Part shown: piece by piece, positions 9,362-63,459 of the stretch
Layout of the letters: the number at the start of each line of letters is the position of its first letter
Numbering within the stretch: position 1 is the first letter of the stretch
From: Balanoglossus misakiensis
Lineage: Eukaryota; Animalia; Hemichordata
Assembly: GCA_040954595.2 (NCBI GenBank)
Contig: CM082578.2
Span: forward strand, 13,422,304-13,486,303
Direction: 5' to 3'
DNA length: 64,000 nucleotides
The notes under the pieces: model-generated
What the model was told of the DNA's origin: nothing
Seen by the model: the letters and a program-made list of their open reading frames with translations, nothing else
Databases searched by the model: none
Program-made: the position numbers and the translations under genes

Positions 9362-12071
9362 TCATCTTTTTTTCACCCAGTGGAAGAAATCACAACGGGC
9401 TTCTTTGTCATCCTTGCGTCCCTCGGGTCTAGCACAAGTGTAAAACTGTCGCCCATGGTTGGGTCCCGACTTCCGGACAGTTTTCAGAACAGCTGGTTCT
9501 TTGTGGCCCTTACACAGAGGCGGTGGTGGAGGACCTGTCAACACAGACTTCCATTTCGCCGCTTGGCTTTTCTTCCTCTCACCAAAATCTTCAAAAGCAG
9601 ATGAATCATAGGATTCTAACGAACTGCAGGACTGCTGGGAAAGCTCTGTTACTTCTGTATCACTTATGTTACTTGAAGTACCCGCTGTCACACTTTCTCT
9701 TGGTGAACTGCCTGCTGGGAGTTCTGTTTTATCAACACCAATCTGACTGGGCAGGTCTTTTCCGGGTTTGTGGCTTTGGCTATAACTGTCTGATTTCTTC
9801 TGAAAGAAGTTCATGATGCTGAGATTTTTTCGCTTGTCATCTCCAGCAGTCTTTCGTCGCTTGGAGGGGCTATCTTTGCCTTTAGAGTTGTTCCTTTTCA
9901 GGGAACCTTTACCCACTTTTGTTTCTCCTTTTTCTGCTTGTGTTTTACTTTCCTGAGTGGATTTCTTCTCAGGCGAGGGATCAGAACTCGCCACCAATTC
10001 ACTTTCACGCGTTCTCTTGCTTGTTGCTGTAAAGAAAGCTGAAAGTTTTTGTTGTTTTCCAGCAAATTCTGGCATGTACTTAGTGCAAAGAGACGGACAT
10101 TTCCTAGCCGGTATGCCTGTACATTTCAGTGTTGCTTTCACAGGGCAATGATCAGAACCTTGGAAATCTGGCATGGTGATAGAGTCTTCAAATATCTCCT
10201 CACAGAGATAAATATCTGCAAATATGTAATCAATTCGGGTTCCATAATTCAGTTGTCTTGCTGATGAAGCCACAGACCAGCATGTGAAAGCTTCTCTCTG
10301 TGTTGGATGGAAGTATCGAAAAGTATCAATGAATTTGCCGCCAGACTTTTTCTGTGCATGCCCTTTCACTGGACTATCACTTTCAGATTCCGAGGACCGA
10401 TAAGCATCTCTTTGCACAGTGACTGGTTTGCCGTCCTCTGTGAGCTCGCACAGAAACTGACTCAACCACTGCCGGCCTGGTACAGCTGCATAGAATCTCT
10501 GCGAAGATAATCAATACAACAGAAAACTTCAATAATAAAGCTAGTCTTTGCACAAAACCTTTGATTTAGGATGCAGACAAGGAAAGTTTGGTGTAGATGA
10601 GTAGTGGACAAAAACACTAAAGTAACAGGTATTGAAAATGCTGAACAGTATATACTGGTTAGAGCACCATAGTAAAGATGCACATGTTATAGATAAATAG
10701 TGATGTGCTTGCAACATTTCCACATTTAGGAAGTTCTTTGATTCAACATGAAACTGACTTACCTTATTATCTGGCTCACAATGATCTATGGGTTTATGGG
10801 ATTGATTTATGTCACCTAGTATAATCACATGTCTGAAATCAAACAGAGTTTAGGGAGTCCAGTAAAATCTCATATAATCTTGAGGGGGATATCTGAGTGC
10901 CCTGTACATTGATCAAAAGAAATATGATACCAATCACGACTTACTTTCCAGCTTTAAGCAATGCTTCACTTCTCCTTTGAAGCAGGGCATGGAAATTAAG
11001 TTTGAACTTTAACCTTTGTTCATCGTCTGGGTCGTATCGAGGACAATACACATTCATAACTGCAACCTCCATTTCAGCACCCGAGTTGTCCCTAAAATTT
11101 AAAATGCCACTGGAATGAATTATCTCATACTGCACTGCACTGTACTGTATCTATTCATTTGTTTATACCCATTTTAGATAATGTCTACATTCAGAATAAA
11201 ATCCATTCTACTCACTTGAATTTGTGTAAGGTGATGACACATCTTCCTTCATTGTCAAGCGATTGCAAACTATCATCAGTGAAATCAGAGTGGTCACCAT
11301 AGAAACCCACAGTGTCATTCCCAGCGGTGCTTGCATGCAGTCCAGTTAATCCTTCCTCTGCAGCTACAGGCACTGAGGAATCTTTACAGAAAGTTGCAAC
11401 ACCTGGAATCGGTCAGATTTGTTGTTGATAAGACAAAGGAACAATACCCATAATGGTCCACAGAATTGGGATGTTTGTGATCTGCAAACATCTCACCTGA
11501 GTAACCTGCTCTTCCTCTTGAAAAACTAAAATATGCATTATAACCATCAACAATGGCAGAGGGCTCATCCAGCTGATCACCTGGTTTAACATAAGATACA
11601 TGACAAAAGGGACAAAGTTATTTATTTTGATAGGCAGTTGTCCTCACAGAATTGAAATGGTTTTGTGTATGACATATTGACATATCATTCATGTAGACCC
11701 TCTTATAGCCTGAGGTTTGGTGTGCAGAGCTACCATGGAACGTTTTCAATATCGTGCGATTTACCCTCTGCAACCTCTGCGTGGCAGGGCTGTGTGTCTT
11801 GCGGTGATGCCTCAACACCGCGTAAGATACACATCCCTGTCACATAGAGCTTACTCTGCATGATCTGCTCTGATGGAGTGCATGATACACCACACCAGTA
11901 TTGAACATTTGTACTAGTCGTAGTACATGTACTAGAATAATTGAACAAGTACGTACGTGTAACTTTTGTTTCTTGGATACAAATTATATCTGCATCTAGT
12001 GATTTAAAAAGTTCGCCGAGTTTAATTTTGGTTGCTCGTATGCCGTTGATGTTCCATGAAAGTATCTTCAT
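9362..12071 (-). CDS. APEX2: DNA-(apurinic/apyrimidinic site) endonuclease 2, about 6 coding exons
   Basis: Exons encode MKILSWNINGIR..IICIQETK, GYSGVATFC, NVYCP, ILGDIN, DTFR..FTCW..NYGTRIDY and GSDHCPV (EEP nuclease). PIP box QQKLSAFF and C-terminal GRF zinc finger (CKGH..GPNHGRQFYTC..CDFFHW). Confidence 0.96.
11636..11865 (-). ncRNA. Candidate intronic box H/ACA snoRNA or scaRNA in APEX2 intron 1
   Basis: On the minus strand: a long 5' hairpin (11774-11849) with UGAG in its loop, an H box ACACCA (11723-11718), then a 3' hairpin closed by CCUCA/UGAGG and followed directly by ACA (11641-11639). The 5' boundary is approximate. Confidence 0.45.
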
Positions 12072-12362
12072 TTTGCATGGTTTGTTGATACTATCGTCCT
12101 TTTCATCACGGTTTGTCAACATGGTCTGCACACATGCGCAAACTTGGTGGAATTGACACGTGCCTTTTCTATTGGCTCTTTGTGGCACATGGCGTCGACT
12201 GAACAGCCAATCCACACGCACGTCTCATTAATAAAGTGGCGTCTGTTGTGGCGGGTTCATTTCGTCCACAGTGAACGAACCTGTTGTTATTGTGAAATTG
12301 GCAGGGTGGTACATCCGTGAAAGTGAATTCAACTACAACTGTTTGCAAAGCCCCATGCAAAC
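12072..12362. promoter_or_regulatory. Bidirectional promoter region between APEX2 and TMPO
   Basis: Divergent start codons about 290 bp apart. CCAAT boxes in both orientations (attgg near 12171, ccaat near 12207). Confidence 0.6.
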
Positions 12363-22272: not shown

Positions 22273-24969
22273 CTATGATCTTCTAGTGGTGACTGGTCCA
22301 TTTTGTTTTGTCTTCACCATTTCTTTCAGCATTTTCTCACACATGAACAGAGACCTTGGTACGTGAAAGCAACCTGTTTACAAAAGTGTCAATAAGTTAG
22401 CAAAGTTAGCATTGTCGATTATCTCAACAATACTCAAAGTCTGCCTGTAAACAACATGTCTACTCATTGTTACAAATAATAACTGTAAAATAATATTACC
22501 TTTGAATGGACCTCCTTTAAAATTCTGTGTTACTTCACCTTGTTGGCTGAGATAGCCATACCATTCACCATATTTGTTGTCTGTAAACTGGAATTGAAAG
22601 TACTTGATTAAAACACTGTCGTTTTATCCAGATAGTGGTAAGCTTCTGCGAGAATCTAGAAAGTTCTTCAGCTTGTACATAGATATACACCTAATCCAAT
22701 AGCGTACAATTTCCAAACTTAAAACTAAACTGATTAAGTTTACATTTTTCTGAGATTGGACTTACATGGTTGAAGCTGTAGTCAAATACTTTTGCGAAAT
22801 ATTCCAAGTATGTGACATCATTTGTTTCTTTGTAAGCCATGAGAAATGCAATTAGAGCTTCATTATGTGGCCACCACAATTTCATATTCCATTCTAACTG
22901 TGTCGGGGATAGGCCATCAGCATCTAGGAAGTAAAGAATCCCTCCATATTTTTCATCCCAGCCACTTTTGAATGGATTCACCATGAATTTCTGGATAGCT
23001 ATTTCTTTGAGGTTTGGTCTGTTATTCTTCACTGCATAATCTAAGAGAAACCAGCCTGCTTCTATGGCATGACCTAAAGTACAAAAATTAAGCACCATGT
23101 ATGTCAAGAAGTTTGATTATTTGATGGTGGGTTTCTTCCTTCATTATCTATAAGAAAACCCAGCTTTGATGCAGATGGAGGAATTATTACCTGGATTCAT
23201 ATGCCTTCCTTGGCATCCCGGTATTTCTTTGCCTTCAGGAGACACATTTTCCAATATCACTATTCCATCTCTCTGCAATAGTCAACATAAGATCAATAGG
23301 GATATGAGCCTGTGATAACTAGGATCAAGAGACTGGGAAATAAATAAAGATACAATAAGACCAGAATTCCAGGCCTGAAAGGGTACACTGTAAAACATAC
23401 GACTCAAAGAAAAGAAGCATTAATACCTGTACATGCTTGAGTGCCTCCTCCACCGTCCATTCTTGTAAATCTTTAAACTCCGCAGCCAGTGAAATATCAT
23501 CTTCACATAATTCATCAATTAGAACCAGCAACATCATTGGAATGGCAAGACCATTCACTGGCATCATCCCAGACAACTTGGGTCTTCCAAGTTCTGTATC
23601 ATCAACCTGTACCCAGTGCTTGATTTTGCGTAACATCTTGACAGCCTCTTCCTGCAGAAAGTGATAAGATTCTTACATTTAGCTTTCTTTCAATATACAA
23701 CATCCAGATCAGTCAGATTTCTATGTTCCCTGCATCATAGTTTATGAACATTAACATCATCAGTGAAAGAAAAGTCATATACACACCGCAGTGACTACTT
23801 ATAGTGTGTTACTGAATAGAAACTGACAGGCCTCTTTGTGGTTGGCTCATATTACCTTGTATTTTGAGTCTTTAGTTGCCCTAGCAACTTCTGACATGGC
23901 CAGCATGTAGAAACATTCGGCAAAGATGGTGCGCTGAATTTTGATTGGATGACCTTCCTTTGTCATCAGAAAGTGACACTTCATTGTCTCTGGGTCCTTG
24001 AGATTTTGCATGAGAAAGTCCGCACCTGATGTTTGCAGACAGAATGTGCACATGTATTACTGAAGCAAATTTCTCAAAAACATAGTATCAAAAATATGGA
24101 TTTTATTCGTCTTAATTGAATAGAACAAAATCAGTGATATTCCAAATCCATGCATAGGTATACCACACTGATCTCTCTAAATTTATCTTCTAAAATGGCA
24201 ATACTCAGGCACTCACCTCTTACTGCAGCCTGAAGAATATCTGGCTTGTGAAATCTTTCAACTTCATTGTACAGCTTACAGTACATCCACACCTGAAATG
24301 CCAAATAATTTCTTTTAAATTCAGGATTCACTGAGAAGATTCATAATGTCCTTGCTAATGCTTACTGCATTTAAAAGTTCCTTATTACCAGGTATTTTTT
24401 ATCCCTGACATCACAGAATGCAATCTACATGTGCAAAGTTTTAAATCATAAAAGTTAAAGAGCAGGCGCCTGGTTAAAGAGGTAATTGCGTCTCACCTGT
24501 CTCCCTTGAAGCCAACCATACTTGAGATCGTCATAGATTTTGCCATCCCGACCAAGACATGTAAAGAAACCCCTAGACAGTGATAAAATAGAAATATCAA
24601 AAATCAATCACAGGCACAAGGGAAGTCTGCGGGACCAACTAGGTCTATATATATGTCTCTGGTTGAGTTGATGGCAGGCAGATACAGCTCTGACAATGAA
24701 TGATCGGGCCTTCTTTACCATTAATCTCCAGACAATTGAAGAACCATGTTCAATGTACATTCTTGCGTACTCAAGGTCCTGTTAATGCCGAAACTGCTCT
24801 GCATAAGGCCATTAACATAACAACAAAATTACAATACAATGTACTATATGTCATACCCATTTTCTTCATCATGTGAGTTTGTCAACCAAAATTCCATAGC
24901 TCTGTCCAGCTCTCTTTCTATTTTCTCTAGGAATTCTGGAAGTCTTGATTTCACACAATTGAGAGCCAT
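22273..24969 (-). CDS. RENBP: N-acylglucosamine 2-epimerase (renin-binding protein), about 9 coding exons
   Basis: Exons encode [82 protein letters not shown] and GPFKGCFHVPR. Confidence 0.96.
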
Positions 24970-29000: not shown

Positions 29001-32000
29001 AGAAACATATCAGAAGGTACAGCAGATACATACATGTAGCAGTCCGTCTGCACACAAGTTGATTTGTATTGTTTCCTTTTTCAGCAAACAAGGTTTTAGT
29101 CATAGATGGGATAGAAGATATTTCTTCACCCAAGGTGGTAATTTAATGAGTCAGCCAAGAGAACAGGTAAGACATGTTAAATTAAGCTTAGGACATGATT
29201 CTGCTGGGAGCATCAATCCTTCACTACATTGTGTATGTCTTCTTTCCAAACCAAACATTCACAAGACTCTTTTGAAACATTTGTTATTTTAATTTTGTTT
29301 CATCTGTAGTTTGCAGGTACACTAGTCATGGATCTAGATAAATGTAATGTTCAAAGGATAGACATTGATGATCGGCGATACACCTTTCACGTGACATCAA
29401 ATGATAGAAAAGTGTAAGTAAATGATAAATGTGTATTGCATGTACCTCTATTAGTGTATCATTGTCAATGCCTTATCTCTGTAATGTGTAAGCTTATTAG
29501 TGCAAAGTTACTTCTGTTTCACTCATGTTCATGTAATCCATCTGTCCTCAGCCATTACTCAGACTTGCTTAAATTTTCTCTGCATTTTCCTGACCAGGTC
29601 TGCAGTATTACAAGCAGAGAGTGGACCTGACAGAGAAGAATGGATAGCCGCAATACAGAATATATCAAGAGAAATGTACAGAGATGATATTCCTGCAGTG
29701 AGTATCACAGTTGAAGTCTTTGGTCTTGCTTTGCGAGATCTCAGTTACATGACTTTGAAATTACTGTCTCTCCCTAAACTTGAAATATGTTAATATTGTT
29801 TAATGTATAATGACAAAACAGCAAAGGAAATGGTGATCACTACTTGATGTTGACTATTAAATTGAAGATGCCTTTCTTTGTTACATTCACTCTGAATGAC
29901 TCATCTGTTGTAAGCCAGTTCACTAACATGCTGAGATTATCTTTTTTTTAAAGGAATTCTTGCCAGAAACTTCAGAGTCATCGTCATCACTGACATCAAG
30001 TGCCAGTTCAACAGGAGTACAGCTGAGTCCAACTCCAAAGTTGGCTGATCCAACAGTGCTGGCAGCAACTCGACAAGAAACTCTATCAACAAGGTGAAAC
30101 ATTTGCCTGTGGGTTCTTTAAGTTCAATTTTCAATGCAGTGATTTTATGAGCACCATTTAGAACAGACATAAGCACCACTCTGTCATCTAGAAGGAAGAA
30201 TCAATTGTCATCTGAAATTGTTTTATAATGTATGTATTCCACTATGAGTGACTCTCTCATGAAAATCACAGGTGGTCTAATATATTACAATTACCTTTGA
30301 CTTGCAGGGAGAAGGGAAAATCCAGACTACGATCCCGTTCTCGAAGCGACAGTTCAGATTCCAATCCTTCCCCTGGGCCACCTCCCCCAACTCCACTAGA
30401 CACAGTTCTGCCACCGATACCAATTCAGTTTGATTTGTTGTCTCCAGGAGATGACCAACCGGTGTACAGATTGCAACCGAAAGAAGGTCCTCCTAAACGA
30501 ATCAATCCATTTAATGACTCCGTTACTGACATTATTTCAGAAAATGGTAGATATCCACTCTCTGTTGGCACATTTGTGAAAATGCAACACAAGTGTGAAT
30601 ATCTAAATATTTAGTGCAAATTTCTCTCTCTCTCTTTCTTGTTAAATACCCTGCACGATAACTTTCAAAGTTTAATAAAAAATGATAGCTCTTTAAATTA
30701 TGCTTGCTATATTACTGGAAATACTGTAAAATTCTTAGTTCTTAGTTAGAATTCCACTTTCAAATCAACAGCTGCAAGTGCAACCTGACTTTGACATCAT
30801 CTATCCTAAATAATTTCTAATAGGAATTCTCTAGTAGCATGTGGTGCTTTGAAGGGTTTGAAAGGTGGAATTACACAAGAAGAAGTAAAGATACAAGAAG
30901 AGTAAAGATACAAATTTCTATGAAATTTGATTCCAACACTGGTTTGATGCCAGCTAATTTCTGTTGTTGCTTTCTTTTACAGTCAGCAGCCCTAGTACAT
31001 TTTCACAGATGTATGTTGTCCGTTTTCTTGGATGCATGGAAGTCAGTTCTGACAAAGGTACCAGCATGATCTCGGAGACGATCCGTCAGATCATGGCTGC
31101 AAGGGCGATTCACAACGTCTTCAAGATGCCAGAATGTCATATGTTGGTAACCACAGAGTCAATTTTGTAAGTATCTGTACTTACCAGATGGATAGTTTAG
31201 GGAACTCATTACTCTGTGTGTATGTGTATGTACAGTGTACATGTATCTTCTATTCACATCTTTTACAGATTGCTGGAGCCATCAAACCAGACTATAAGGT
31301 CAAAAATTGAACTGAAAGATTTGTCATTCTTTGCTGCACATCATGAAAACAATAGGTAAGTTATGAGAAAAAGATGTTACTGATGCAATGCTGTGTCTGT
31401 AGTTAAACAGGACAATGAATCTTACAACCCTTTCACCACCATGGTTCAGTCCAAACCCATTGTTTTCTATGGTAAGGTTGGACCTCTAAAAAGTGAACTG
31501 GGGGTGAAAGTGATCAATTTGCACATCATAAACAGAGTGCATCAAACAGGGTTTGTCTTCCTCTGGTTTCTGAGACATTCACATTTTGTCCATGATTTCT
31601 CCTACAGGCTGTTTGCATTCGTTGTTCGAAGCAGAGGTTACACAAAATCCATGACAACATTTGCTTGCCATGTGTTTGAATCTGATGCTTCAGGTGAAGA
31701 GATTTGCAGAGCAATAAGTACAGCCACACAGATTGCCTTCCAGACTATGCTGAACATGAAGACATCAGATCGACGTTCTGTAAGTTTTTCCACTTGACAT
31801 GTTGTTTGAAACAGTAAACTGTTTTAGCCGTGAAATCATACTGCAACATTTGTGATAACATTTTGATTTTTTGAGACATTTAAATTTTCAAAAATACACC
31901 TGCATAGTTCCAGTGTCATATTTTTATTTCGTTTTCACCGAGATAGGCATCACCCAGTGACGAGGTTGGCCCATCACAGGATTCCGGCCATTCCGCAGCA

Positions 32001-37509: not shown

Positions 37510-40500
37510 TTATATATATGTATGTATATGGCTCAGTTCAATTTCCTTATCAACTGGAATCGGATATTGCAGGTGGATAGACGGTTCCATGTTGTTACTC
37601 TCAGCAGCATCTTGTCTCTGTTTGAAATGAAGTGGATTGTCTCTGTACCAAGCAAGCAGTTTTCCCAGAGATTCCATACGTGGTCCATGTCGATAAAAAT
37701 ACCACTGTCCGTTTTGTCTTTTCCTGTACAGTCTGAAGTGTTTTATTTTTCCAGCATACCTAGAAAGGTAATCATTCACATCCTTGTAAGTCTTTTTGAC
37801 ATCAAGTGAATATGGAGAATCTCTACTGTACAGTGACCACACAATGCTCTGTTTGAAATGGCTCATCAATATCTTCCAAGTTACCAAAAATTCAATTTCA
37901 AGATTTCTGATTTGATCTGGTCTTGTTGTTTTGTTTATCTAAAAGTAGAGTTATTTTCAAGAAAGACAACAACAGACTTTGAAGAAATTAACTTACGTTA
38001 CACTAACAGCTTTATCTTTGTCTTTTGTCTTGCGCACCAAAAAGCAGCCATCGAGATGAATGTACTGTTCCATCACTTTTGCAATCTGAAGTTCAAACAG
38101 AATGAATTATTAGTGCCAATCTGATAATTTCGAAGAAACACTCCTTACTATTGTCCAAAGTAACAGATTCTTTTAACCAAACCTGGCATACTGATGTCAA
38201 ATTGAAACTAAAAACTGCTCTCAAAATATAATCCTGATGATTTAAAATACCTCTTCTTTAATGTCTGGAAGATGTGGATGCCATCCATAAATTGTTCCTT
38301 CATCTTCATTGTCCGTTTCTGCTTCATTTTCTATTCTTGGAGTTGTTGCTTGGATGGCAAAGGCTGTATCAGCCGACAGAAGATTCAGTGACTCTTCTTT
38401 AGTACTTCTCATCTTGATATTTTTCGTCTTTTCTGGATCCAGAGATGCCAAAAATTGATCTCGTTCCACAGGACTTTTCAAAAGAGACATGTAGGTTGCC
38501 TCACTCTCCTGCGTTCGGTTGCTTGTAGGCCTGTCACTTTCTCTCTCTTTGGGGGAGTTGGAAACATCATGATGTGTGACGAGACTATCACTCGCAACCA
38601 CCTGTGCATGTCTTTGCTGCGCCGGACTGCTGGGTAATGATGATGCCTCGTCATAAATGTCTTCACTTTCAGGATGTTCTGTTTTCTCACAAACAGGTTT
38701 CCTTGCCAACAGAGTCCGTCCTGGTGTGCCTTCCTCATCTATTCCAAATTGTGTTGCTGTTGATTCACAAGCCTCTTCATCTTTACAATACATTTTCTTT
38801 TTCTCTTTCTTACTGAGAAACAAGTGATAACCCTTGTGTCGAAGAGAAAAGAAAAAACAAACTGTCATTTTATGAAAATCCAACATTCCTGCTGGATTCC
38901 TGGAAATGGCCACTGTAGTTTAAAAATTTCCCTAACACATATGTATATTCTAATCAACTCTTGTGGTGTAAGCATTCTGCAAAAACCTGCTGAATATTAT
39001 TGTTGTCGCCAAATTAAATTCTTCAACTCACTCTCACCTCGACTTGTCCCACAGTCACTTTCCAATCAATTTTGACACCCGGATTTTTTTCAAACTCCAC
39101 ATCATCCAGCCGGAGACCATTAGAGACCAAAGTATCTTCTAATGCAGCTTGTAATGTTGTGTGTACAGGCACATTTGATATTGTAAGGTCCAATGGCATG
39201 ATTGGGTCCACCAAAATACATTCTAATCTGCAAACTCCTGATGGTAACCAAAAATAATACACCAGTAGTAGTATATTGCAAGCAGTGATTTATAGCTACA
39301 TGTACATTGTATTTGTCTATAATTTATCATATCTAAGGGGTGTTTTTTTTTTCATTTGTTCCTCATGGATCAACTAACCCTAATTTTTGGCTCTACACTG
39401 GGAAAAAGTGTCAATTGTTTCCATGAACCTGAATTTCCAAGTCAAAGCAAGTTAACAATGGAAATGAATTAAACTATTAGGAAATCAAAAACATGCTCCA
39501 ATGGGAATGTTTGTCCCAGCTGCATTGGAACCTACCGCTGTTCTCCTTTTCTGGTGTTTTTCCGGAAGAAATTGATCCCTGGCTTTCCGAGTGAACATTT
39601 GTAATCCTTTCTTCACCAGCTGATAGTTTTTTCTTTTGTAGGAAAACATGATACCCCTTAGAGTCAAGAAAAAAGTATATGAATTCACAGATTAGTCAGA
39701 AATTGTCTGGTTTGCACATGTGCTTGCTCATGCAATTGATAATGAACATGACTGAACTGTACTTTGATTTTGTTAATTTTAGTTGAACTGGACTGTTGGT
39801 GATAAAAGGACTGTTTCAGTGAATCACTTTGACTTGTCAGTTATTTCAGTCAAATTTTAGCACAGGTATTAATCTGGGCTCATCGTAACAAGGATATTTG
39901 TTGACTGAAGATGTGGCTATAGTGCCACCTTGGTATCTTGCAAATTCATTCATCCTTCCTTTCTAACAACTGAAAAAAAATATCCCATAATTCACCTTGA
40001 ATTTCCCAACTTTTTCATTCCAGTCAACAAAAATGTGAGGAATTTGTTGAAATTCCAGTTCATTTTTGTCCAATCTCATCTTCTGAAGACTTTCTTGCAA
40101 AGCTTCTTCCAGGGTCATTTCCTCGCTGATATCCAAACATGTCAGGTCTAAACATTGATCCTCTCCAGTACTGAGAGAACATGTCAATGTACAGCAGGCT
40201 ATAATCAAACAAAAATAAAATGTACAATTTTCAAATATAAGAGATCTTCAATCTGTAGCATTATTTGTCATGAAATTCAATGTTTACAGAATAAAATAAA
40301 CACAGAAAGCTGTTGAAAGAAAATGTGTACACTGAGCTGCACCAAAGGAAATATGAATATTCATTATAAATTTACATGGAAGTTTTTGAATACATTACTT
40401 GATATATGCATTTTACTTCCGCAATCAACCATACGACGAACTTGACTCAAACTTACTTGTTTTACGGAGAACCTCTAAGACGTCAAGTCTATCCATACTA

Positions 40501-40799
40501 ATAAGACAGTCTTCCACTGTCTTCACGGTACAGTATGTTCCCCGTCGATCCAATTCGTCAAGCAAAACACGCCCAGGTGTTCGTCCAACTTTTTCGCCTT
40601 CCTGTCGTATGCGTTCTATGTTGTCTCTGTCGAAGTTCAGTCGCTCGGCCAAGGCTTGCCAATCTTCCGCGGTGCATAAGTTCTGAGCCAAACGAGTTCC
40701 CATCTTATCTTTAACCGCTGTAGACACAGAACTGAATGGGTTCATCTGGATTTGACTCCACCTTCGTTGGTCACCACGTGTAATGGTATTCCCGGACAT
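37510..40799 (-). CDS. Adaptor A: death domain - RBD-like - RBD-like - acidic/Tyr linker - SH2, about 595 aa. Exons 40799-40457, 40198-39996, 39656-39536, 39237-39038, 38832-38251, 38085-37997, 37759-37510
   Basis: All six introns are GT-AG with consistent phase (1788 nt). Death domain EDWQALAERLNFDRDNIERI..LLDEL..TVKTVEDCLISMDRLDVL. Two repeats of TL..AL...L...GL/RL..DW...G..GYHxFL. SH2 GWH..DGCFLVR..KIKHFRL..SLGKLLAWY..LQYPIP. Confidence 0.85.
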
Positions 40800-41591
40800 T
40801 TTGCACTTCTGACTCAGATTTTACCTACTTCCTAGGCCATATATCTTATATATGGACTTCAATACACGCCCTCTACCGACAAACTCGATGGTTTTGTATA
40901 TGATTCTGAACGTTGTTTTCAACGGGGGATCGGTACGCGTTCGGGGGTCGGTTGACTCAACATTGAAATATTGCAATTTTCCTGATTTTTACAGATGCTG
41001 TGTATCGATGAATTTTGAAAACATAAATAAAAAACATGATTTTGCATGGTTCTGGACAATTTTTACGTATGAAATAAGGCAGCTGTCGGCTTTCTCCCAA
41101 GCTTACCTGAGAAGCCTATTTGACCCACAGTAATGTAAAGGGATTTATTATGAGATTTGTATGTCTTATAAGAGCCGATCATGGATTGAGAGAGAGAGGA
41201 ATTTCAGTGGCCGTGTATGTACAGCTCTCATTGGTCATTTCTCGATAAAACAGGTGCACGCCCTGGGTGCACATTGGCCAGATGTGTCAAATACTCAAAT
41301 ATGGTGCAACCAATCCGCTTTAACTTTCAGGGTGCTGCATGTATATTCTTACCGCTTTTGTAAAAAGAACTGACGAGGAGAAAAATAAACAAAATTCAAA
41401 TTTGCATTAATAGAAACGTGCAGCTTATTGTTAGTATGTCATCAGTGGCTCGGTCGCGAACCTGGTATCTATGTCAAGGGACAAACACCGGGTCAGAACT
41501 TATCAGTACGTACATCATCAGCGTTGACATTTACCGCGGCCAAAATAGCCACTGCTTTATTTGACAAATGTTACTGAATATTTCTAGTTCT

Positions 41592-41624
41592 ACCACGGTC
41601 ACTCCACACAGGAGTGACCGTGGT
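41592..41624. repeat. Perfect 14-bp inverted repeat with a 5-nt spacer
   Basis: accacggtcactcc-acaca-ggagtgaccgtggt. Confidence 0.9.
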
Positions 41625-41819
41625 TCTACACTGAATGTCCGATGTGTTTCAATGTCGATACTGTTACTAACACCATGGTTACAGGCAGCATCACACCAAC
41701 TTGTGACATAAAGCTAAGGGAACCTGGCAACGCACACAGTTATAGTGTGGAAGTTTTACTAGGAACCAGAACGACAGACACCTGTTGAATATTGTCGTCT
41801 CTCTCTTACATTATCCCAG

Positions 41820-44051
41820 TCAGTATTTCAAAGTTTTGTGCAGTTCCTCGAGTTCCCTGTTGACATTCACTGGATACTTCAATTTAAGAGAGACCCTAGG
41901 TGGCAGGGGAGGGGCTCCATCATTATTTGACTCCGCAGCTTGGCTCTCAGTTTTCCGTAGTGATAAAGCATTGTGTCTATAGTATTTCAAGAGTTCTTCT
42001 ACTGAATCTTTTCTTTCATCGTCTCTGTAGAAATAAAACTGGTTTTTGCTCTTGTATATCCTTAAGTGTTTGATCTTCCCCAGGTACCTGTGAAAAATGG
42101 TAAAAGATAGTTATTTTCAGTAGCATTTTTTCTGGTGTCCACTTGTTTAGACTTACTGTGCATAGGTTCAGGTTAAATGACATTGAAAATCTGGAAGACA
42201 CATGCGGATGCCAATTTTTAATGGCCCATGTTTGTCGACGTGGCCATTTCTATATACATGAGTTCAGGACTTCTTATTGATGTTCAAGTTGAAACAACTT
42301 ACGTGGCACTGACTGCAAGACGCCCTCGCTCTGTTCTCCTCAGAATGAAGTAACCGTCTGCCTTCAGGTAATCTTTCATAACTCTGATGATCTTTCAGAG
42401 GAAACGAGACAGCGATTTATGAGAGATGCAAACTCAGTGATATTGCCAGGTTATTTTCATTTCGTCAAATATGCGTGATAACAATTGCCGTTGTCATGGA
42501 TTCAGGCACTGACTTTAAATGAACTTTTCCATAGCAACAATATTAAATTTACACATGGGCTGTCTTCATGAGCAAACAAATCATAAAAAAATCACTATCA
42601 AGTCAAGGAGAAAAAAATAATTGAAGATGATTGTTACCTCAAATTTATTATCTGGTAGATGCTTGTGCCATCCCAATTTCACGTCTAAATTTACATAAAT
42701 ATCGTTTGCATCCCTGCCATTAACAGATTTCTGAGTAGGAGACCGAGTGCATACTTCCACGTCATCATAATCGTTTTCAGTTATTTCTTTTTCGTCGTCT
42801 TCCTTCCATTGCGATGCCTGGTATAGATATATGTGGTAACCCTGCCGTTATAATCAATGAGTCGTAGCATCAAACTACATGTATGATCAAAACAGCAACG
42901 AATAATGGACTTAAAGTATGACTTGCACAATATCTTGATGTCAAAAACTCACTTTCAGTTGGCCGGCTTCGGTGTCCCATGCAATTTCCTTGTCAGTGAC
43001 AGGGCGGATCGCCAGGTCATCTGGTTTCAACCCAATCTTTTTTAAAGGTCGATTCAAAGCTACCATTAGACTGTCTTGTTCTGGTACTCGAAGATCTTCT
43101 CTTGGCAGATCTACTGTCTTTTCCTGATCCATTACAACTGTACAGGTTAGTTGGCACAATGCTGAAAACAGGGCAAATATATTGCAAAGGAAGAAACAGA
43201 CATGCGTTGAAGCCTTACTATTATCTGGTAGAAGCTTAGTCCTTAATTAACACTTATACTCGTGATGATGATGTAGTTCTGGGGAAAGTGAACGTGTCTG
43301 GTGGAAATGGGACACAGATACAAAAAGCATACCTGTTCAAAACTACACGTAGCCTAGTCCGTTGGAAATATGCTTATAGGCCTAAGTTATACATGCGGAT
43401 TACCGTACTAACAACCAAATGGTTATTCTGTTATTCTAAATTAAGACTGTCTATAGTAGAATTATGACATCAGTGGATAAAAGTTGAGCGTAGTCGAAGT
43501 TTTGGAACATGTTTCGGGTACATTGTGCTAGTATAATCTTTCCAGTGATTCATAAGGCGTCATTGAAAATTACGAATTCGAAGTACTTCCTTGTATGGTA
43601 TCAGTATCGGAATTTACATGTACTCACATTGCGCGCTTTGATAGAGAAGACTCAACACGTCATATCTGTTTATGGATATAAGTTGATCCTCCAAAACCTT
43701 GACTGTGCTACTGCCTTTCTGGGACCATGAGTCCAGCATTATTTCACCTGCGATTTTGCAATCTTTTTTACCCTCTAGTTGAATGAACCTGATTTCGTCC
43801 CGGTCTAGACCAAGGGCTTCTGCGAGAATCACCCAGTCGTTCGCAACTACATGTTTTTCGGACAGATAAACACCGATCTTCCTCTTTATGCCTGTGCTGA
43901 GTGTAGAGTAGGGCTTTGATCTGTACAGATCCCAATTTGCAGGCGGCGTGTGTGTCGGCTCCGCAGACGTACTCGCCATATTCAGTATACTATTAGTTGG
44001 CATTGCCGAAGATTCTGGTTCGGTCGATAGGTCAATTGACCTATGATACAC
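41820..44051 (-). CDS. Adaptor B: MyD88-type death domain - Raf-type RBD - Tyr linker - SH2, about 397 aa. Exons 44051-43628, 43161-42953, 42841-42638, 42391-42303, 42087-41820
   Basis: GT-AG introns with consistent phase (1194 nt), at the same positions as in paralog A. Death domain LSTGIKRKIGVYLSEKHVVANDWVILAEALGL. RBD SLMVALNRPLKKIGLKPDD..IAWDTEAGQLKGYHIYL. SH2 GWH..DGYFILRR..KIKHLRI..SVEELLKYY..LKYPV. The start could be ATG 44051 or 44003. Confidence 0.85.
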
Positions 44052-44202: not shown

Positions 44203-45045
44203 ACCGATGAAATATGGATACTTACTGCCAGCTCGCGTTCAATTTCGACGCAAGATTTTGGTCTCTGATTCAGAACTGGGTCACGAATGGAAATCGTAAT
44301 ACATTGTACTTGAGATGTTGAAGTGGTTCAATAAATGACACACAGAGTTTTAATTTTCCTTCCAGATCAAAATACAAATGTACTCGGTGCTAACTCTGGA
44401 CCCCATCCCTGCCACAAAGCTGTTTAAACAAGCGACATCCACTCAACATAGCTTGCAATATAGCTCCCATGACGTGACACTTCATACAAAATGAAAGGTG
44501 ACATGATTGCGACTGACTTTCTGACTTTGATACAGGTTTAATGACAAAAATAAGGACAGGAAAAGACATTTTAATGATGGCAAATACAGTACATAAAATA
44601 ACAGAAATATTTCAATATTAAGTCTCTAGGTTTTTTTGGTAGTCCTACCTCTACATATTTTTTGTAAAATTTCAAATACTAGTTCTCTGCTGTATCTCTC
44701 CCCTACCCATTGTACATGTATCTTCCCACCCCAGTACCCCGTTCCAGTATCTCTCCCTCCCATCCTGCACCTCTTCCCACTCCGTTCACTCATTCATTCA
44801 TTTTCTTGTACCATTCTTGACTGAAGCCCAATAATGGCTACACAGCCAAACAGCCAAAGCAAACTATCCTTCACAGTACAAGTGATTTAGATCACCCTAC
44901 TTGATCTTTCAGCCTTACATACATATTGACATTCTTAAAAACGTGTATTCCCCAAAACAAAATAAACTTATAAACAGGTATAACTATTTCATGTCTGATT
45001 TACAATTCAAAGGAAAGTTGACAGTGGACTGCCTCCTTGTTGTCA

Positions 45046-46413: not shown

Positions 46414-46634
46414 TTTGTAGCGTTCTGCTTTCGCCCTCACCGCACAACATACATGCTGGTTCATTTCACTTTTATTTTCTGGTACGTCGATATTTTAACG
46501 CCATTATAAAGTTCACAGGTTTTACATTGCGTGTGGCAAAGCCGGACAAGGAACGTTTGCATTGAAACGGCCTTGCGTTCTCTGTGTGGTCCGCAGAGTT
46601 GTTTGTAAACGTCGAACGGTGAACTGCTCACGTC

Positions 46635-60656: not shown

Positions 60657-63459
60657 TTAACAATCACTGCAGTAATAAACATACCCTGATCGATATGATA
60701 ATTCTGAAAGAAGATAATTTTTTTCAAATAACGCGCACTGTTTCCATTGGACTAGGTTGTCGCTCTCCACGCTAAAACTTTGACAACTCAGGTGGCCCAG
60801 ACACTTTTGTGCGCAGGCAATTTGTGAAGTGACGTATGTTCTCCTCAGGGGCTGACCACTTCCCGAAAAGTTATCCGCAAACAAAGAAAACATGGCGGAT
60901 CTGATTACGTCATTTCTTGTTATCCGAGGAGCAGCTGAAAATATAGGAACATTTTTGTTTAAAATCCTATCCAATTCCTGAAAATGTGTTTAATAAAACA
61001 CAGCTATGTATAAACAATTAATTATTTCAGCTAGTGGTCCCAAATTTAGTGACACAATAGAAAGAGTTTTTTTAAATAGTTTTGATCTTAGGCTAGGCCT
61101 ACTTCACCTTGACAAATTTTCAGTGAGTGGTATACGCGAAAAAAAAGAGCGCCAATATGTTGTTTAGAACACCATATACGCCATTTTTGCCATTTGTGGA
61201 CATATGTAAATTGCATGTGACCGTGTACCTTAATATAAAACTCATGTTACCTGTAGTTTGTTCGGCAGTCGTCACAGTGGTCGTTGGTGGCAGCGTGGTT
61301 GCCACGGTGGTCGTTGGTGACGCCGTGGTTGTCACGGTGGTCGTTGGTGGCAGTGTGGTTGCCACAGTGGTCGTTGGTGGCAGTGTGGTTGTCACAGTGG
61401 TCGTTGGTGGCAGTGTGGTTGCCACAGTGGTCGTTGGTGACGCCGTGGTTGTCACGGTGGTCGTTGGTGGCAGTGTGGTTGCCACAGTGGTCGTTGGTGA
61501 CGCCGTGGTTGTCACGGTGGTCGTTGGTGGCAGTGTGGTTGCCACAGTGGTCGTTGGTGACGCCGTGGTTGTCACGGTGGTCGTTGGTGGCAGTGTGGTT
61601 GCCACAGTGGTCGTTGGTGACGCCGTGGTTGTCACGGTGGTCGTTGGTGGCAGTGTGGTTGCCACAGTGGTCGTTGGTGACGCCGTGGTTGTCACAGCGG
61701 TTGTTGGTACTGTAATCACCCGAATTTAAGTGGATACGTAAATGATACGAATCGTACAATTATACAAATAAAAGTCACTGAGAATTTAACTCATCAGTTG
61801 CTAATACTGATGCCTGTTTTTAAAACATGCATTAATCTGTCAAAGAGCGAAGCAGGAAAACTAATAAAATCATAGCAGAAACTGAGAGCATTTTAATAAT
61901 ATGGGTGGGAAATGTAGTTAATAAACAAAAGAAAACTACTTTTAAAAAGCCAGAAGTTAATGCACCAAATATATGTGAATTGTGCATCATTTGGTGTTGC
62001 CTCACTGGTCACATTAGATCTTGTTGGGGAAAATGGGGACCTTTTTGGGGATAAGTTTGAAGGCAATCTGCTGAGGCAAGATTGATCAAATGAAAATAAA
62101 TGATAGTCTAAAAGTCATGGCGGATTCTGTTGCGATATCAATCCGTCTTTGCTAAACTCTATCGTCCTCCCAAGGTTTCGTTTGAGCGTGACACCAGTCT
62201 TGGTACCACCAAGGTCTGGGCCTTTGACAGATTATAAGTTCACATTGGCATTTTTGAATAAATTTCGAATAAATACGAGTAAATAAATATGAATCCTACT
62301 AACCTGGTTTTTTGCAAACGAACCCTCTTTCACTACTGCAACTTTCGTCGTAAATTGTATGAGATAAAACGGACAGACGGACGCAGTCCTCAGAATCACC
62401 ATCTGGTTCATTAGTCTTCCATGGTTTGAAACTTGCTAGGTCGCCGTCGACTGTTTTGTAGACACCCTCCGAATCTATGTCCGATAAACCCAACCATGGC
62501 CCTGGTCCACTGAAGAATGATGTACAATTATAGACATTTTTAAGTCCTAAATTGACTTTTCGTCTATACAAAACCCAGGAATTAGTCTAATAGCAAGGAC
62601 TCTTCATTATGGATTATTCATAAATAGCTGAATGTTGAACGGATTACCCAGAGATTGTTCAAATTGTGGTATAAATTTAAAATCACCCTTCTCCTTAAAT
62701 GTGGAAGGTAAATATATTAATAGTGCACGGCGTCGTTTAGAGACACCGACATTGTGGAAGAAAATTTGAGCGATGATTGGAAGATAATATTCACTAATGT
62801 TTTTCCTCTGACATTTTTAAAGTGTCTTCGTACTATCCTTAATATGTAGACAACATACTTAATTAGAAAATCTACCACAACTTCAAAATTACCTGTCATC
62901 TAGGTAAGCGTTTACCCAATCTTGAACGACGTCTAGCTCTGCCTGGTCGCTAAAATACGCCAGTTTTCCTAGTCCGTTTGAAACACAATGTGATTTCGCC
63001 CCACTCCAAGTCTTCTTTATGTCTACGGCTTCATATATGTACGAGTTGTATATCATAGGGTTCAACCCTGTAATACACGGAAAAGAAAAGAATAGTAAAA
63101 ACAGAAGCCGTGGGTCGTTGTTGATTTCAAACAACTAGGCTATTGAAAGTGTTGTATCAGGCCTATACGTTGTCATACAATGAAGTACGGCCGAGATACA
63201 TTCAAAGCTGTACTGAAAATTACCGACTGTAAAAAGTCGCTTTCTGTAATGGTCGACGATTTTAAAAATCTAGTTTTGATAATGCGCATTCAATACGGAT
63301 TTTTCCGTTAAAAGTTGATCTCATTGCGATAGTAGAGTACCCACCTGCAACAATTTCTATGTGATTAACGTGTATGTAAACGCAAGTTACAGTGAAAGAT
63401 GCGAACCATGTAAGCCACGCCATTGGTGAGCGGTGCCGATCAAGTGTTTGTAACTTCAT
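60657..63459 (-). CDS. Secreted C-type lectin domain + Thr/Pro mucin repeat + PAN/apple-like protein. Exons 63459-63345, 63067-62893, 62509-62304, 61709-61251, 60934-60657
   Basis: Hydrophobic leader. CTLD KKTWSGAKSHC..KLA..WLGLSD..EG..W..NEPD..EDCV..DESC..FVCK. Mucin repeat exon. Last exon SQIACAQKCLGHLSCQSF..CALF..YY. Exon phases are consistent and there is no TM segment. The start may be the second ATG (MAWLTW). Confidence 0.8.
61264..61700 (-). repeat. Coding tandem repeat: 60-bp unit made of two 30-bp subunits (TTTASPTTTV/ATTLPPTTTV), about 7 units
   Basis: Near-identical repeats seen directly, inside the mucin exon. Confidence 0.97.

Follow-up and report, generated by a model that had tools for sequence, protein, structure and literature searches.

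What question does this locus raise? It is whether a death domain (DD), a Ras-binding domain (RBD) and an SH2 domain can stand together on one polypeptide and, if so, what such a chain might do. The window analysed is a stretch of 64,000 nucleotides from the hemichordate Balanoglossus misakiensis (assembly GCA_040954595.2, contig CM082578.2, positions 13,422,304 to 13,486,303 of the forward strand), and all coordinates below are positions within it. Two adjacent genes on the minus strand, here called A and B, had been proposed in a sequence-only reading to be paralogs that can be spliced in frame, each encoding a DD, one or more RBD-like modules and a C-terminal SH2 domain. The pair is confirmed by GT-AG introns, matching intron phases and colinear RefSeq orthologs, and the motifs quoted in that reading are present in the sequence. 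The layout is not local: it belongs to an old multi-phylum invertebrate family of enteropneusts, amphioxus, Lingula and bivalves, a real and conserved family of the death-domain adaptor kind that is apparently undescribed.

As to function, it is quite plausible, if short of probable, that the SH2 domain docks these adaptors on tyrosine-phosphorylated receptor complexes and that the clustered DDs recruit DD partners of the MyD88/IRAK4/Pelle class. This proposal goes beyond the layouts, the three folds in the models, and the family and its spread, and every step in it that lies beyond architecture is one that we infer.

Tandem genes and the family to which they belong

Gene B (44003-41820, minus strand) consists of five exons that encode 381 amino acids in the order DD-RBD-SH2, with no internal stop. 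Exon 1 (43628..44003) carries the start codon and the DD; a second ATG at 43979 in the same exon is the better fit to the N-terminus of the ortholog from Ptychodera flava. Exon 2 (42953..43161) encodes a Raf-like RBD short of its last strand, which opens exon 3 (42638..42841) and is followed there by an acidic linker and the beginning of the SH2 domain. Exon 4 (42303..42391) spans SH2 helix A to strand C and includes the FILR arginine at 42340-42338, and exon 5 (41820..42087) supplies the remaining SH2 domain, whose last strand is preceded by a long loop, and the stop codon. Gene A (40799-37510, minus strand) has seven exons encoding 595 amino acids in the order DD-RBD-RBD-SH2. The start and DD lie in exon 1 (40457..40799). 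The first RBD-like module, in exon 2 (39996..40198), is recognized by a hidden Markov model (HMM) of the family and has weak RA and TUG-UBL1 matches; its last strand and a linker are in exon 3 (39536..39656). The second module, in exon 4 (39038..39237), is found by the family HMM and is a phase 1-0 exon duplicate, with its last strand at the start of exon 5 (38251..38832), ahead of a long acidic linker containing three tyrosines and the beginning of the SH2 domain. Exon 6 (37997..38085) contains the FLVR arginine at 38034-38032, and exon 7 (37510..37759) completes the SH2 domain and ends in the stop codon.

All ten introns of the two genes are of the GT-AG type, with lengths of 111-466 nt, and each reading frame has a single terminal stop. 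Phases are equal at homologous introns, being 1 at the end of the DD exon, 0 for the RBD exons and 2 for the 89-nt SH2 exon that A and B have in common, and in all three RBD copies the last strand opens the following exon. The two proteins share 35% identity over the DD and RBD (E 2e-32) and 42% over the SH2 region (E 6e-30). An AATAAA signal lies 259 nt downstream of the stop codon of B and 633 nt downstream of that of A. When all six frames of the window were scanned with the family HMMs, the DD was found in two exon segments, the RBD in three and the SH2 domain in four, with no others and no third gene copy.

The exon junctions are predicted from the genomic sequence and from colinearity with RefSeq ortholog models, which are themselves gene predictions. 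This dependence on predicted orthologs, together with the annotation of DD-less isoforms in P. flava, could be taken to mean that the DD, RBD and SH2 exons lie on separate transcripts and that the joined layout is an artefact of gene modelling. We consider this highly improbable, as exon order and junctions are alike in two paralogs and in orthologs from several phyla, and whole DD-to-SH2 frames are found on short contigs.

The closest relatives come from other enteropneusts. Protein B matches P. flava XP_070558531 (isoform X1, 385 amino acids) at 242 of 381 positions, and none of the four junctions coincides with a gap; the ortholog from Glandiceps talaboti (398 amino acids) is identical at 187 of 381. 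Protein A and P. flava XP_070558530, each with two RBDs, are identical at 264 of 595 positions and colinear at all six junctions, of which one lies beside a 3-residue gap and another where a divergent linker ends. The first half of the DD is missing from XP_070558530, probably because of an error in modelling or assembly; in the window, gene A is complete. With the DD of B as query, the search returned P. flava XP_070558532, whose cluster holds the 385 amino acid X1 form and four accessions of a 251 amino acid form lacking the DD. These DD-less RBD-SH2 isoforms of P. flava gene B are annotated as XP_070558534-37, and a possible upstream donor near 44226 could allow the DD exon to be skipped in gene B of the window.

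Word-index searches recovered 1, 2 and 2 proteins, and most family members were missed by that route. A profile built from the two B orthologs and the window exons gave 139 matches among 1.84 billion representative sequences. Classified with the family HMMs, 24 of these carry DD, RBD and SH2, a count that is partly circular in that 21 of the 24 belong to the training alignment and one more is another isoform of a protein in it; two carry DD and RBD, 80 SH2 only, 32 DD only, and one none of the three. An independent Pfam scan placed both Death and SH2 on 16 of the 30 proteins scanned. Among 21 three-domain members that were looked up, 14 have names (three from P. flava, two from Glandiceps, one from Saccoglossus, three from Branchiostoma, one from Lingula and four from bivalves). 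The other seven lie on contigs of 1.4-4.4 kb, each with an entire DD-to-SH2 frame, in the manner of spliced transcripts. The 14 named members do not include any vertebrate, tunicate, echinoderm or ecdysozoan species, which is not proof of absence from those groups. All 14 are labelled uncharacterised, hypothetical or 'death domain-containing', and none has a functional name. The family has gone unnoticed because its members carry no functional name and its RBD scores too low for Pfam.

In a tree of the three domains combined (27 rows, 273 columns), A groups with XP_070558530 (100/99) and B with its two orthologs (99/99). A, B and the second Glandiceps gene are grouped at 100/99, so the duplication that produced A and B took place within enteropneusts. 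The Saccoglossus gene belongs to a third paralog of the enteropneusts, and a separate clade of 11 (100/99) is formed by three bivalve proteins, Argopecten and seven further rows. Neighbouring accession or locus numbers suggest that tandem pairs also occur in P. flava and amphioxus.

The three domains and the evidence for each

An AlphaFold2 model of P. flava B, calculated from an alignment of 31 rows, has a mean predicted local distance difference test score (pLDDT) of 80.5, with the three domains near 90. The relative placement of the domains is loose (predicted template modelling score 0.44), and the linker at residues 211-248 and the SH2 loop at 346-351 are of low confidence. As the sequence-only reading had it, there is no TIR domain: Pfam detects none on the 12 exons or the full-length orthologs, and the C-terminal position is taken by SH2. 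No kinase is detected by Pfam on the exons of A or B. A search for a PH domain likewise gave no match, and the RBD-SH2 linker of B is about 50 residues long and of low confidence in the model. TRADD-like_N has no Pfam match in any scanned exon, ortholog or family member; one unrelated protein matches. The checks by HMM and structure prediction suggested earlier came out with Death above its Pfam cut-off on both DD exons, SH2 above its own in the full-length B orthologs, RBD below its cut-off but matched to Raf by a profile of family rows, and all three folds present in the model.

The DD is the most readily recognized of the modules. Both first exons pass the Pfam Death cut-off of 22.6 bits (38.6 for B, 32.4 for A), and the domain is predicted as a six-helix bundle. 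The best sequence match of the B domain in the PDB is MyD88 (E 4e-6), followed by ankyrin-3 (0.018) and NRADD (0.08). In fold comparisons, the highest scores were for 3mop_K (Z 13.5, with 1.7 root-mean-square deviation (rmsd) over 93 aligned residues) and 1d2z_A (Z 13.2), which we take to be IRAK2 and Pelle, respectively; MyD88 (6i3n_M) scores Z 12.2 with 28% identity. An HMM of MyD88 fragments outscores an ankyrin HMM by more than 1 bit in 18 of 25 family DDs. With MyD88 residue numbering fixed from PMC3020742 and PMC2852602, E52, R98 and D100 are kept in both A and B, and S34 is replaced by glycine, at a position where small residues are tolerated.

Several observations weigh against a link to MyD88 and its partners in particular. 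The family profile ranks NRADD first (E 8e-17), ahead of MyD88 (4e-15) and p75NTR (3e-14), with RIPK1 and ankyrin-3 after them. The top fold scores are only about 1-2 Z units above those for RAIDD/PIDD (2of5_A, 11.7) and ankyrin-G (11.2). Y58 and K95 of MyD88, which are implicated in IRAK recruitment (PMC2852602), are arginine and serine in both genes. A DD tree of 57 rows leaves the family and MyD88 unresolved. A tree of 31 rows, which omits long-branch rows and some close relatives present in the larger one, places the family and MyD88 on one side at 90/91, with ankyrin and other DDs on the other; this branch is not starred, and approximately unbiased tests do not reject monophyly of the family to the exclusion of MyD88 (p 0.23) or its grouping with ankyrin (p 0.054). 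The comparison rows were themselves chosen by the family profile, the trees include no IRAK, Tube, p75NTR or NRADD, and the seven MyD88 rows are fragments without TIR that were picked by eye from sequence. The 'MyD88-type' assignment made in the sequence-only reading is supported at the level of class; between MyD88, IRAK/Pelle and p75NTR/NRADD, the order of likeness differs from one comparison to the next. Judged from sequence and models, Myddosome class would be a fair label for the domain; to name MyD88 in particular goes beyond the data.

Sequence profiles and models identify the middle module as a Raf-like RBD with a homologous beta-grasp fold. The bit scores obtained for RBD (16-21) stay below the Pfam gathering score (PF02196, 25.7); exon 2 of B scores 16.3 bits (E 0.009), and seven of 21 family rows match with E values of 0.5 or less, the lowest being 2.1e-5. 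A profile of the same 21 rows retrieves chains of Raf1, at E 3.7e-6 for variants and 5e-4 for the ordinary form, as well as RGS14 (1e-3), A-Raf and B-Raf, and the tryptophan of the Raf LDWNT motif is invariant in all 21. The predicted topology is strand-strand-helix-strand-helix-strand, with a pLDDT of about 90. A structural search of the Atlas gave ten rows at template modelling (TM) scores of 0.69-0.80, all under the Atlas bar for naming a family (<0.9): eight are clusters of Raf or RGS12/14, and the other two are a PLEKHG5-like guanine nucleotide exchange factor (GEF) and a bacterial DUF2604 protein. A whole-protein feature search of the Atlas gave no usable match. In three fold searches with the whole model, SH2 and DD matches took up the listed rows and no RBD appeared, and for this reason the assignment of the fold rests on the 21-row profile, the Atlas and AlphaFold2. 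A five-row RBD profile searched against the PDB matched only a coat protein (E 1.6), which was judged to be chance.

The Raf-type RBD claimed from sequence is in this way borne out; the further claim, that GTP-bound Ras or Rap on the RBD gates DD assembly, is weakened, and we regard it as very unlikely. It would accord with homology to the RBDs of Raf1, RGS14, A-Raf and B-Raf, with the nine of ten Atlas rows that are RBD-bearing or PLEKHG5-like (TM 0.75-0.80), with the duplicated RBD of gene A, as in RGS12/14, and with the arginine, lysine and lysine that B has where Raf has K84, K87 and V88. The K84 column is glycine in both B orthologs, however. The helix of Raf ends in KALKVRGL, in which we take the arginine before glycine to be the Ras-contact residue R89; its column holds arginine in none of the 21 rows and lysine in one, being isoleucine in B, methionine and asparagine in A, and leucine (P. 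flava) and phenylalanine in the B orthologs. Strand 2 is acidic, with aspartate in all three window RBDs and in nine of the 21 family rows, and the RBD of P. flava B has a net charge of -5. Presumably R333 of RGS14 is the equivalent of Raf R89, and the leucine of P. flava B would be the same change as R333L. That substitution abolishes binding of RGS14 to both Ras and Rap (PMC3689692). Some RBDs are not Ras effectors, and those of ELMO and FHOD1, in which strand 2 ends in aspartate, have Rho or Arf GTPases as partners (PMC3737747). Because arginine is missing from the R89 column and strand 2 is acidic, the module probably does not bind Ras in the manner of Raf.

The SH2 domain scores above the Pfam cut-off of 21 bits in the full-length B orthologs (32.3 and 24.0 bits), and the split exons of the window score weakly when taken singly. 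Its fold gives Z 13-14 with an rmsd of about 2, Abl, Grb10, p85, Syk, PLCg and Vav2 being tied at about 13. The FLVR/FILR arginine and KH(F/L)R strand noticed in the sequence-only reading are present, and the FLVR arginine at betaB5, the histidine at betaD4 and the basic residue at betaD6 are kept in both A and B. Docking on phosphotyrosine is consistent with these residues in the two window genes, but as a rule for the whole family it is weakened. In a second set of points adverse to the docking proposal, 15 of 31 family rows have another residue in place of the FLVR arginine (tryptophan in 12, histidine in two, tyrosine in one), while 14 keep it and two have a gap, so that the conserved task of the SH2 domain may not be phosphotyrosine binding; moreover, no TRAF6-type PxExx motif was found in A or B. 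At the FLVR position, the third enteropneust paralog has histidine or tyrosine and the bivalve-containing clade has tryptophan. Replacement of this arginine by histidine or tryptophan is likewise known from human RIN2/TYK2 and SH2D5, and SH2 domains without it cannot bind phosphotyrosine through that residue (PMC7530234).

Two further motifs accompany the SH2 domain of gene B. In B and both orthologs a single YxN stands just before the SH2 domain (YVN in B, at 42689..42697, minus strand; YAN and YEN in the orthologs), and a PPLPPR sequence lies in the SH2 loop (41895..41912, minus strand, in a region of low confidence in the model). The latter resembles an SH3 ligand. The former is a putative site of the Grb2-SH2 type, Grb2 favouring asparagine at pY+2 (PMC7530234). 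PxxPx[RK] past the SH2 core occurs in 10 of 27 rows versus 1.6 expected from shuffles, although the rows are related and one of the matches lies in another position. Gene A has neither YxN nor PxxPxR.

These motifs invite a reading with the opposite polarity, in which the DD would take the input by docking on other DD proteins, whether receptors or adaptors (p75NTR/NRADD, UNC5, TNFR-type or MyD88), and the SH2 domain, YxN and PxxPxR would feed into tyrosine-kinase, Grb2 and MAPK signalling in the manner of a Shc-like adaptor. Besides the presence of YxN in all three B proteins and the excess of PxxPx[RK], the ranking of NRADD and p75NTR beside MyD88 in the family profile speaks for it, as does the report that the amphioxus tyrosine kinase SYK acts on MyD88 (PMC13344425). 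Against it, gene A has neither motif, and the 50 structural matches listed are led by Myddosome and Pelle/Tube DDs and include no p75NTR or NRADD chain. On this evidence we hold the reversed arrangement to be rather unlikely.

Comparison with known adaptors and proposed function

Among the papers listed by full-text literature searches, whose scope did not take in SH2-domain censuses and a 2008 amphioxus immune survey that could list a Death-SH2 architecture, none was seen to describe the DD-RBD-SH2 architecture; the phrases DEATH-SH2, DD-SH2, SH2-DEATH, 'death and SH2' and 'SH2 and death' were absent from the full text searched. Tables of novel domain pairs in lancelets (PMC4284660) contain no Death;SH2 or RBD entry in the portion that covers two SH2 places and 30 of 31 Death places. 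The supplements of the hemichordate genome paper (PMC4729200) and of PMC2575513 gave no match, and passages of PMC5978004 and PMC8662601 have nothing on the architecture. The sequence-only reading, whose author knew of no characterised protein with this combination, had not noticed that the architecture is old and recurs in uncharacterised proteins of several phyla, nor that B has conserved motifs of the Grb2 type. Pfam annotation of database proteins already displays a Death-SH2 architecture.

Comparison with known adaptors places the family among several partial likenesses. Like MyD88, its members have an N-terminal DD, similar from the pre-helix proline to helix 6, no catalytic domain and a C-terminal docking module; unlike MyD88, they carry one or two RBDs and SH2 in place of TIR, Y58 and K95 are changed, and the MyD88 DDs form a clade of their own (100/100). 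Grb7/10/14 have the layout RA-PH-BPS-SH2 and Shc that of PTB-linker-SH2. The family resembles the former in the ubiquitin-fold module before a C-terminal SH2 domain and the latter in the YxN just before SH2 (in B), but neither has a DD, the family lacks PH and PTB, and its SH2 domain has no special closeness to any one family. With the RBDs of Raf and RGS12/14 it shares the homologous beta-grasp and the LDWNT tryptophan, and gene A the tandem copies of RGS12/14; it differs in lacking the Ras-contact arginine at the end of helix 1 and, in the window, in its acidic strand 2. The TRADD-N proteins (Kaur et al. 2021, PMC8195603) also combine a death-superfamily domain and SH2 on one chain, for example as Death+TRADDN+coiled coil+SH2+SH2 in Amphimedon and as DED+TRADDN+EF-hand+SH2 in corals, but they are lineage-specific and have TRADD-N rather than RBD in the middle. 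Three family accessions and the term 'RBD' were not found in 12 of the 13 supplements of that paper.

A further parallel is invertebrate CIKS/Act1 (PMC11087794), likewise a DD adaptor with a non-TIR docking domain and DD-less forms, whose DD has been lost in vertebrates. It carries SEFIR instead of RBD and SH2, and its signalling has been studied in reporter assays. The DD of this Death+SEFIR protein is needed for NF-kB activation (PMC11087794), and chimeras engineered to join DED with SH2 or PTB reroute the signals of tyrosine kinases (cited in PMC2575513). The two cases provide a precedent for a death-fold domain on another docking module.

In the docking proposal favoured here, A and B would be non-catalytic cytoplasmic adaptors composed of a DD, a Raf-like RBD, a tyrosine-bearing linker and SH2. 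The arginine at betaB5, histidine at betaD4 and basic betaD6 of both proteins point to docking on phosphotyrosine, and the likeness of the DD in structure and sequence, with retention of MyD88 E52, R98 and D100, to recruitment of MyD88/IRAK4/Pelle-class partners once the DDs are clustered. Through its conserved YxN and PxxPxR, B may in addition open a Grb2-type side branch. The RBD would not serve as a Raf-style Ras sensor; its partner may be a different small GTPase, or it may pack against the DD that directly precedes it. DD-less isoforms, such as those annotated for P. flava B, may act as dampers.

The same parts could conceivably work as inhibitors, TIR-less decoys that are brought to the membrane by SH2 and cap or sequester DD assemblies of MyD88 and IRAK, so as to dampen TLR/IL-17R signalling. 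A and B have no TIR, kinase or TRAF6-type motif, MyD88 Y58 and K95 are not kept, and amphioxus SYK inhibits MyD88 signalling via its SH2 domain (PMC13344425). MyD88 E52 and R98 are kept, however, and in CIKS the presence of the DD activates and its loss weakens signalling (PMC11087794), and an inhibitory role seems decidedly unlikely.

Carried further, the docking proposal would make this a family of bilaterian age, apparently missing from vertebrates, that links phosphotyrosine receptors to Myddosome-type assembly without a TIR or SEFIR receptor: a third entry to IRAK/NF-kB and a natural DD-SH2 chimera, with an SH2 domain blind to phosphotyrosine in bivalves and their kin. We find this extended form doubtful. 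Known DD adaptors read TIR, SEFIR or DD receptors; if it were true, invertebrates would have a direct link from tyrosine-kinase signalling to innate-immune or death pathways. The amphioxus orthologs make the family testable in reporter systems already in use, and the split between arginine and tryptophan in SH2, together with the Ras-atypical RBD, offers tests of how module function changes within a fixed architecture.

Other features of the window

Directly upstream of gene B is a LAMTOR5-like gene (about 46085-45100, minus strand), head to head with a KIN17-like gene that starts at 46633 on the plus strand, both identified by Pfam. A weak tblastn match at 46818-46669 (E 0.065) lies opposite the first exon of the KIN17-like gene and was discarded as chance. 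About 6 kb from gene A, a PTB/PID-domain exon (31384-31797, plus strand) represents a second phosphotyrosine-type adaptor nearby.

Farther away, two minus-strand exons (20829-20745 and 20567-20056) splice to encode a putative secreted precursor with a signal-peptide-like start and about six short two-cysteine repeats between KR/KK sites. The main exon has no Pfam match, and in sequence the product resembles the precursor of a neuropeptide or of another secreted peptide. A GRF zinc-finger gene with endonuclease-like exons, presumably APEX2-like, lies at 9362-12224, and an N-acylglucosamine 2-epimerase is identified by Pfam at 22691-23672. The window also contains a single-exon open reading frame at 1671-2684 that is by eye similar to a G protein-coupled receptor and, on the minus strand at 60657-61759, a PAN-domain exon beside a mucin-like frame of threonine-rich tandem repeats.

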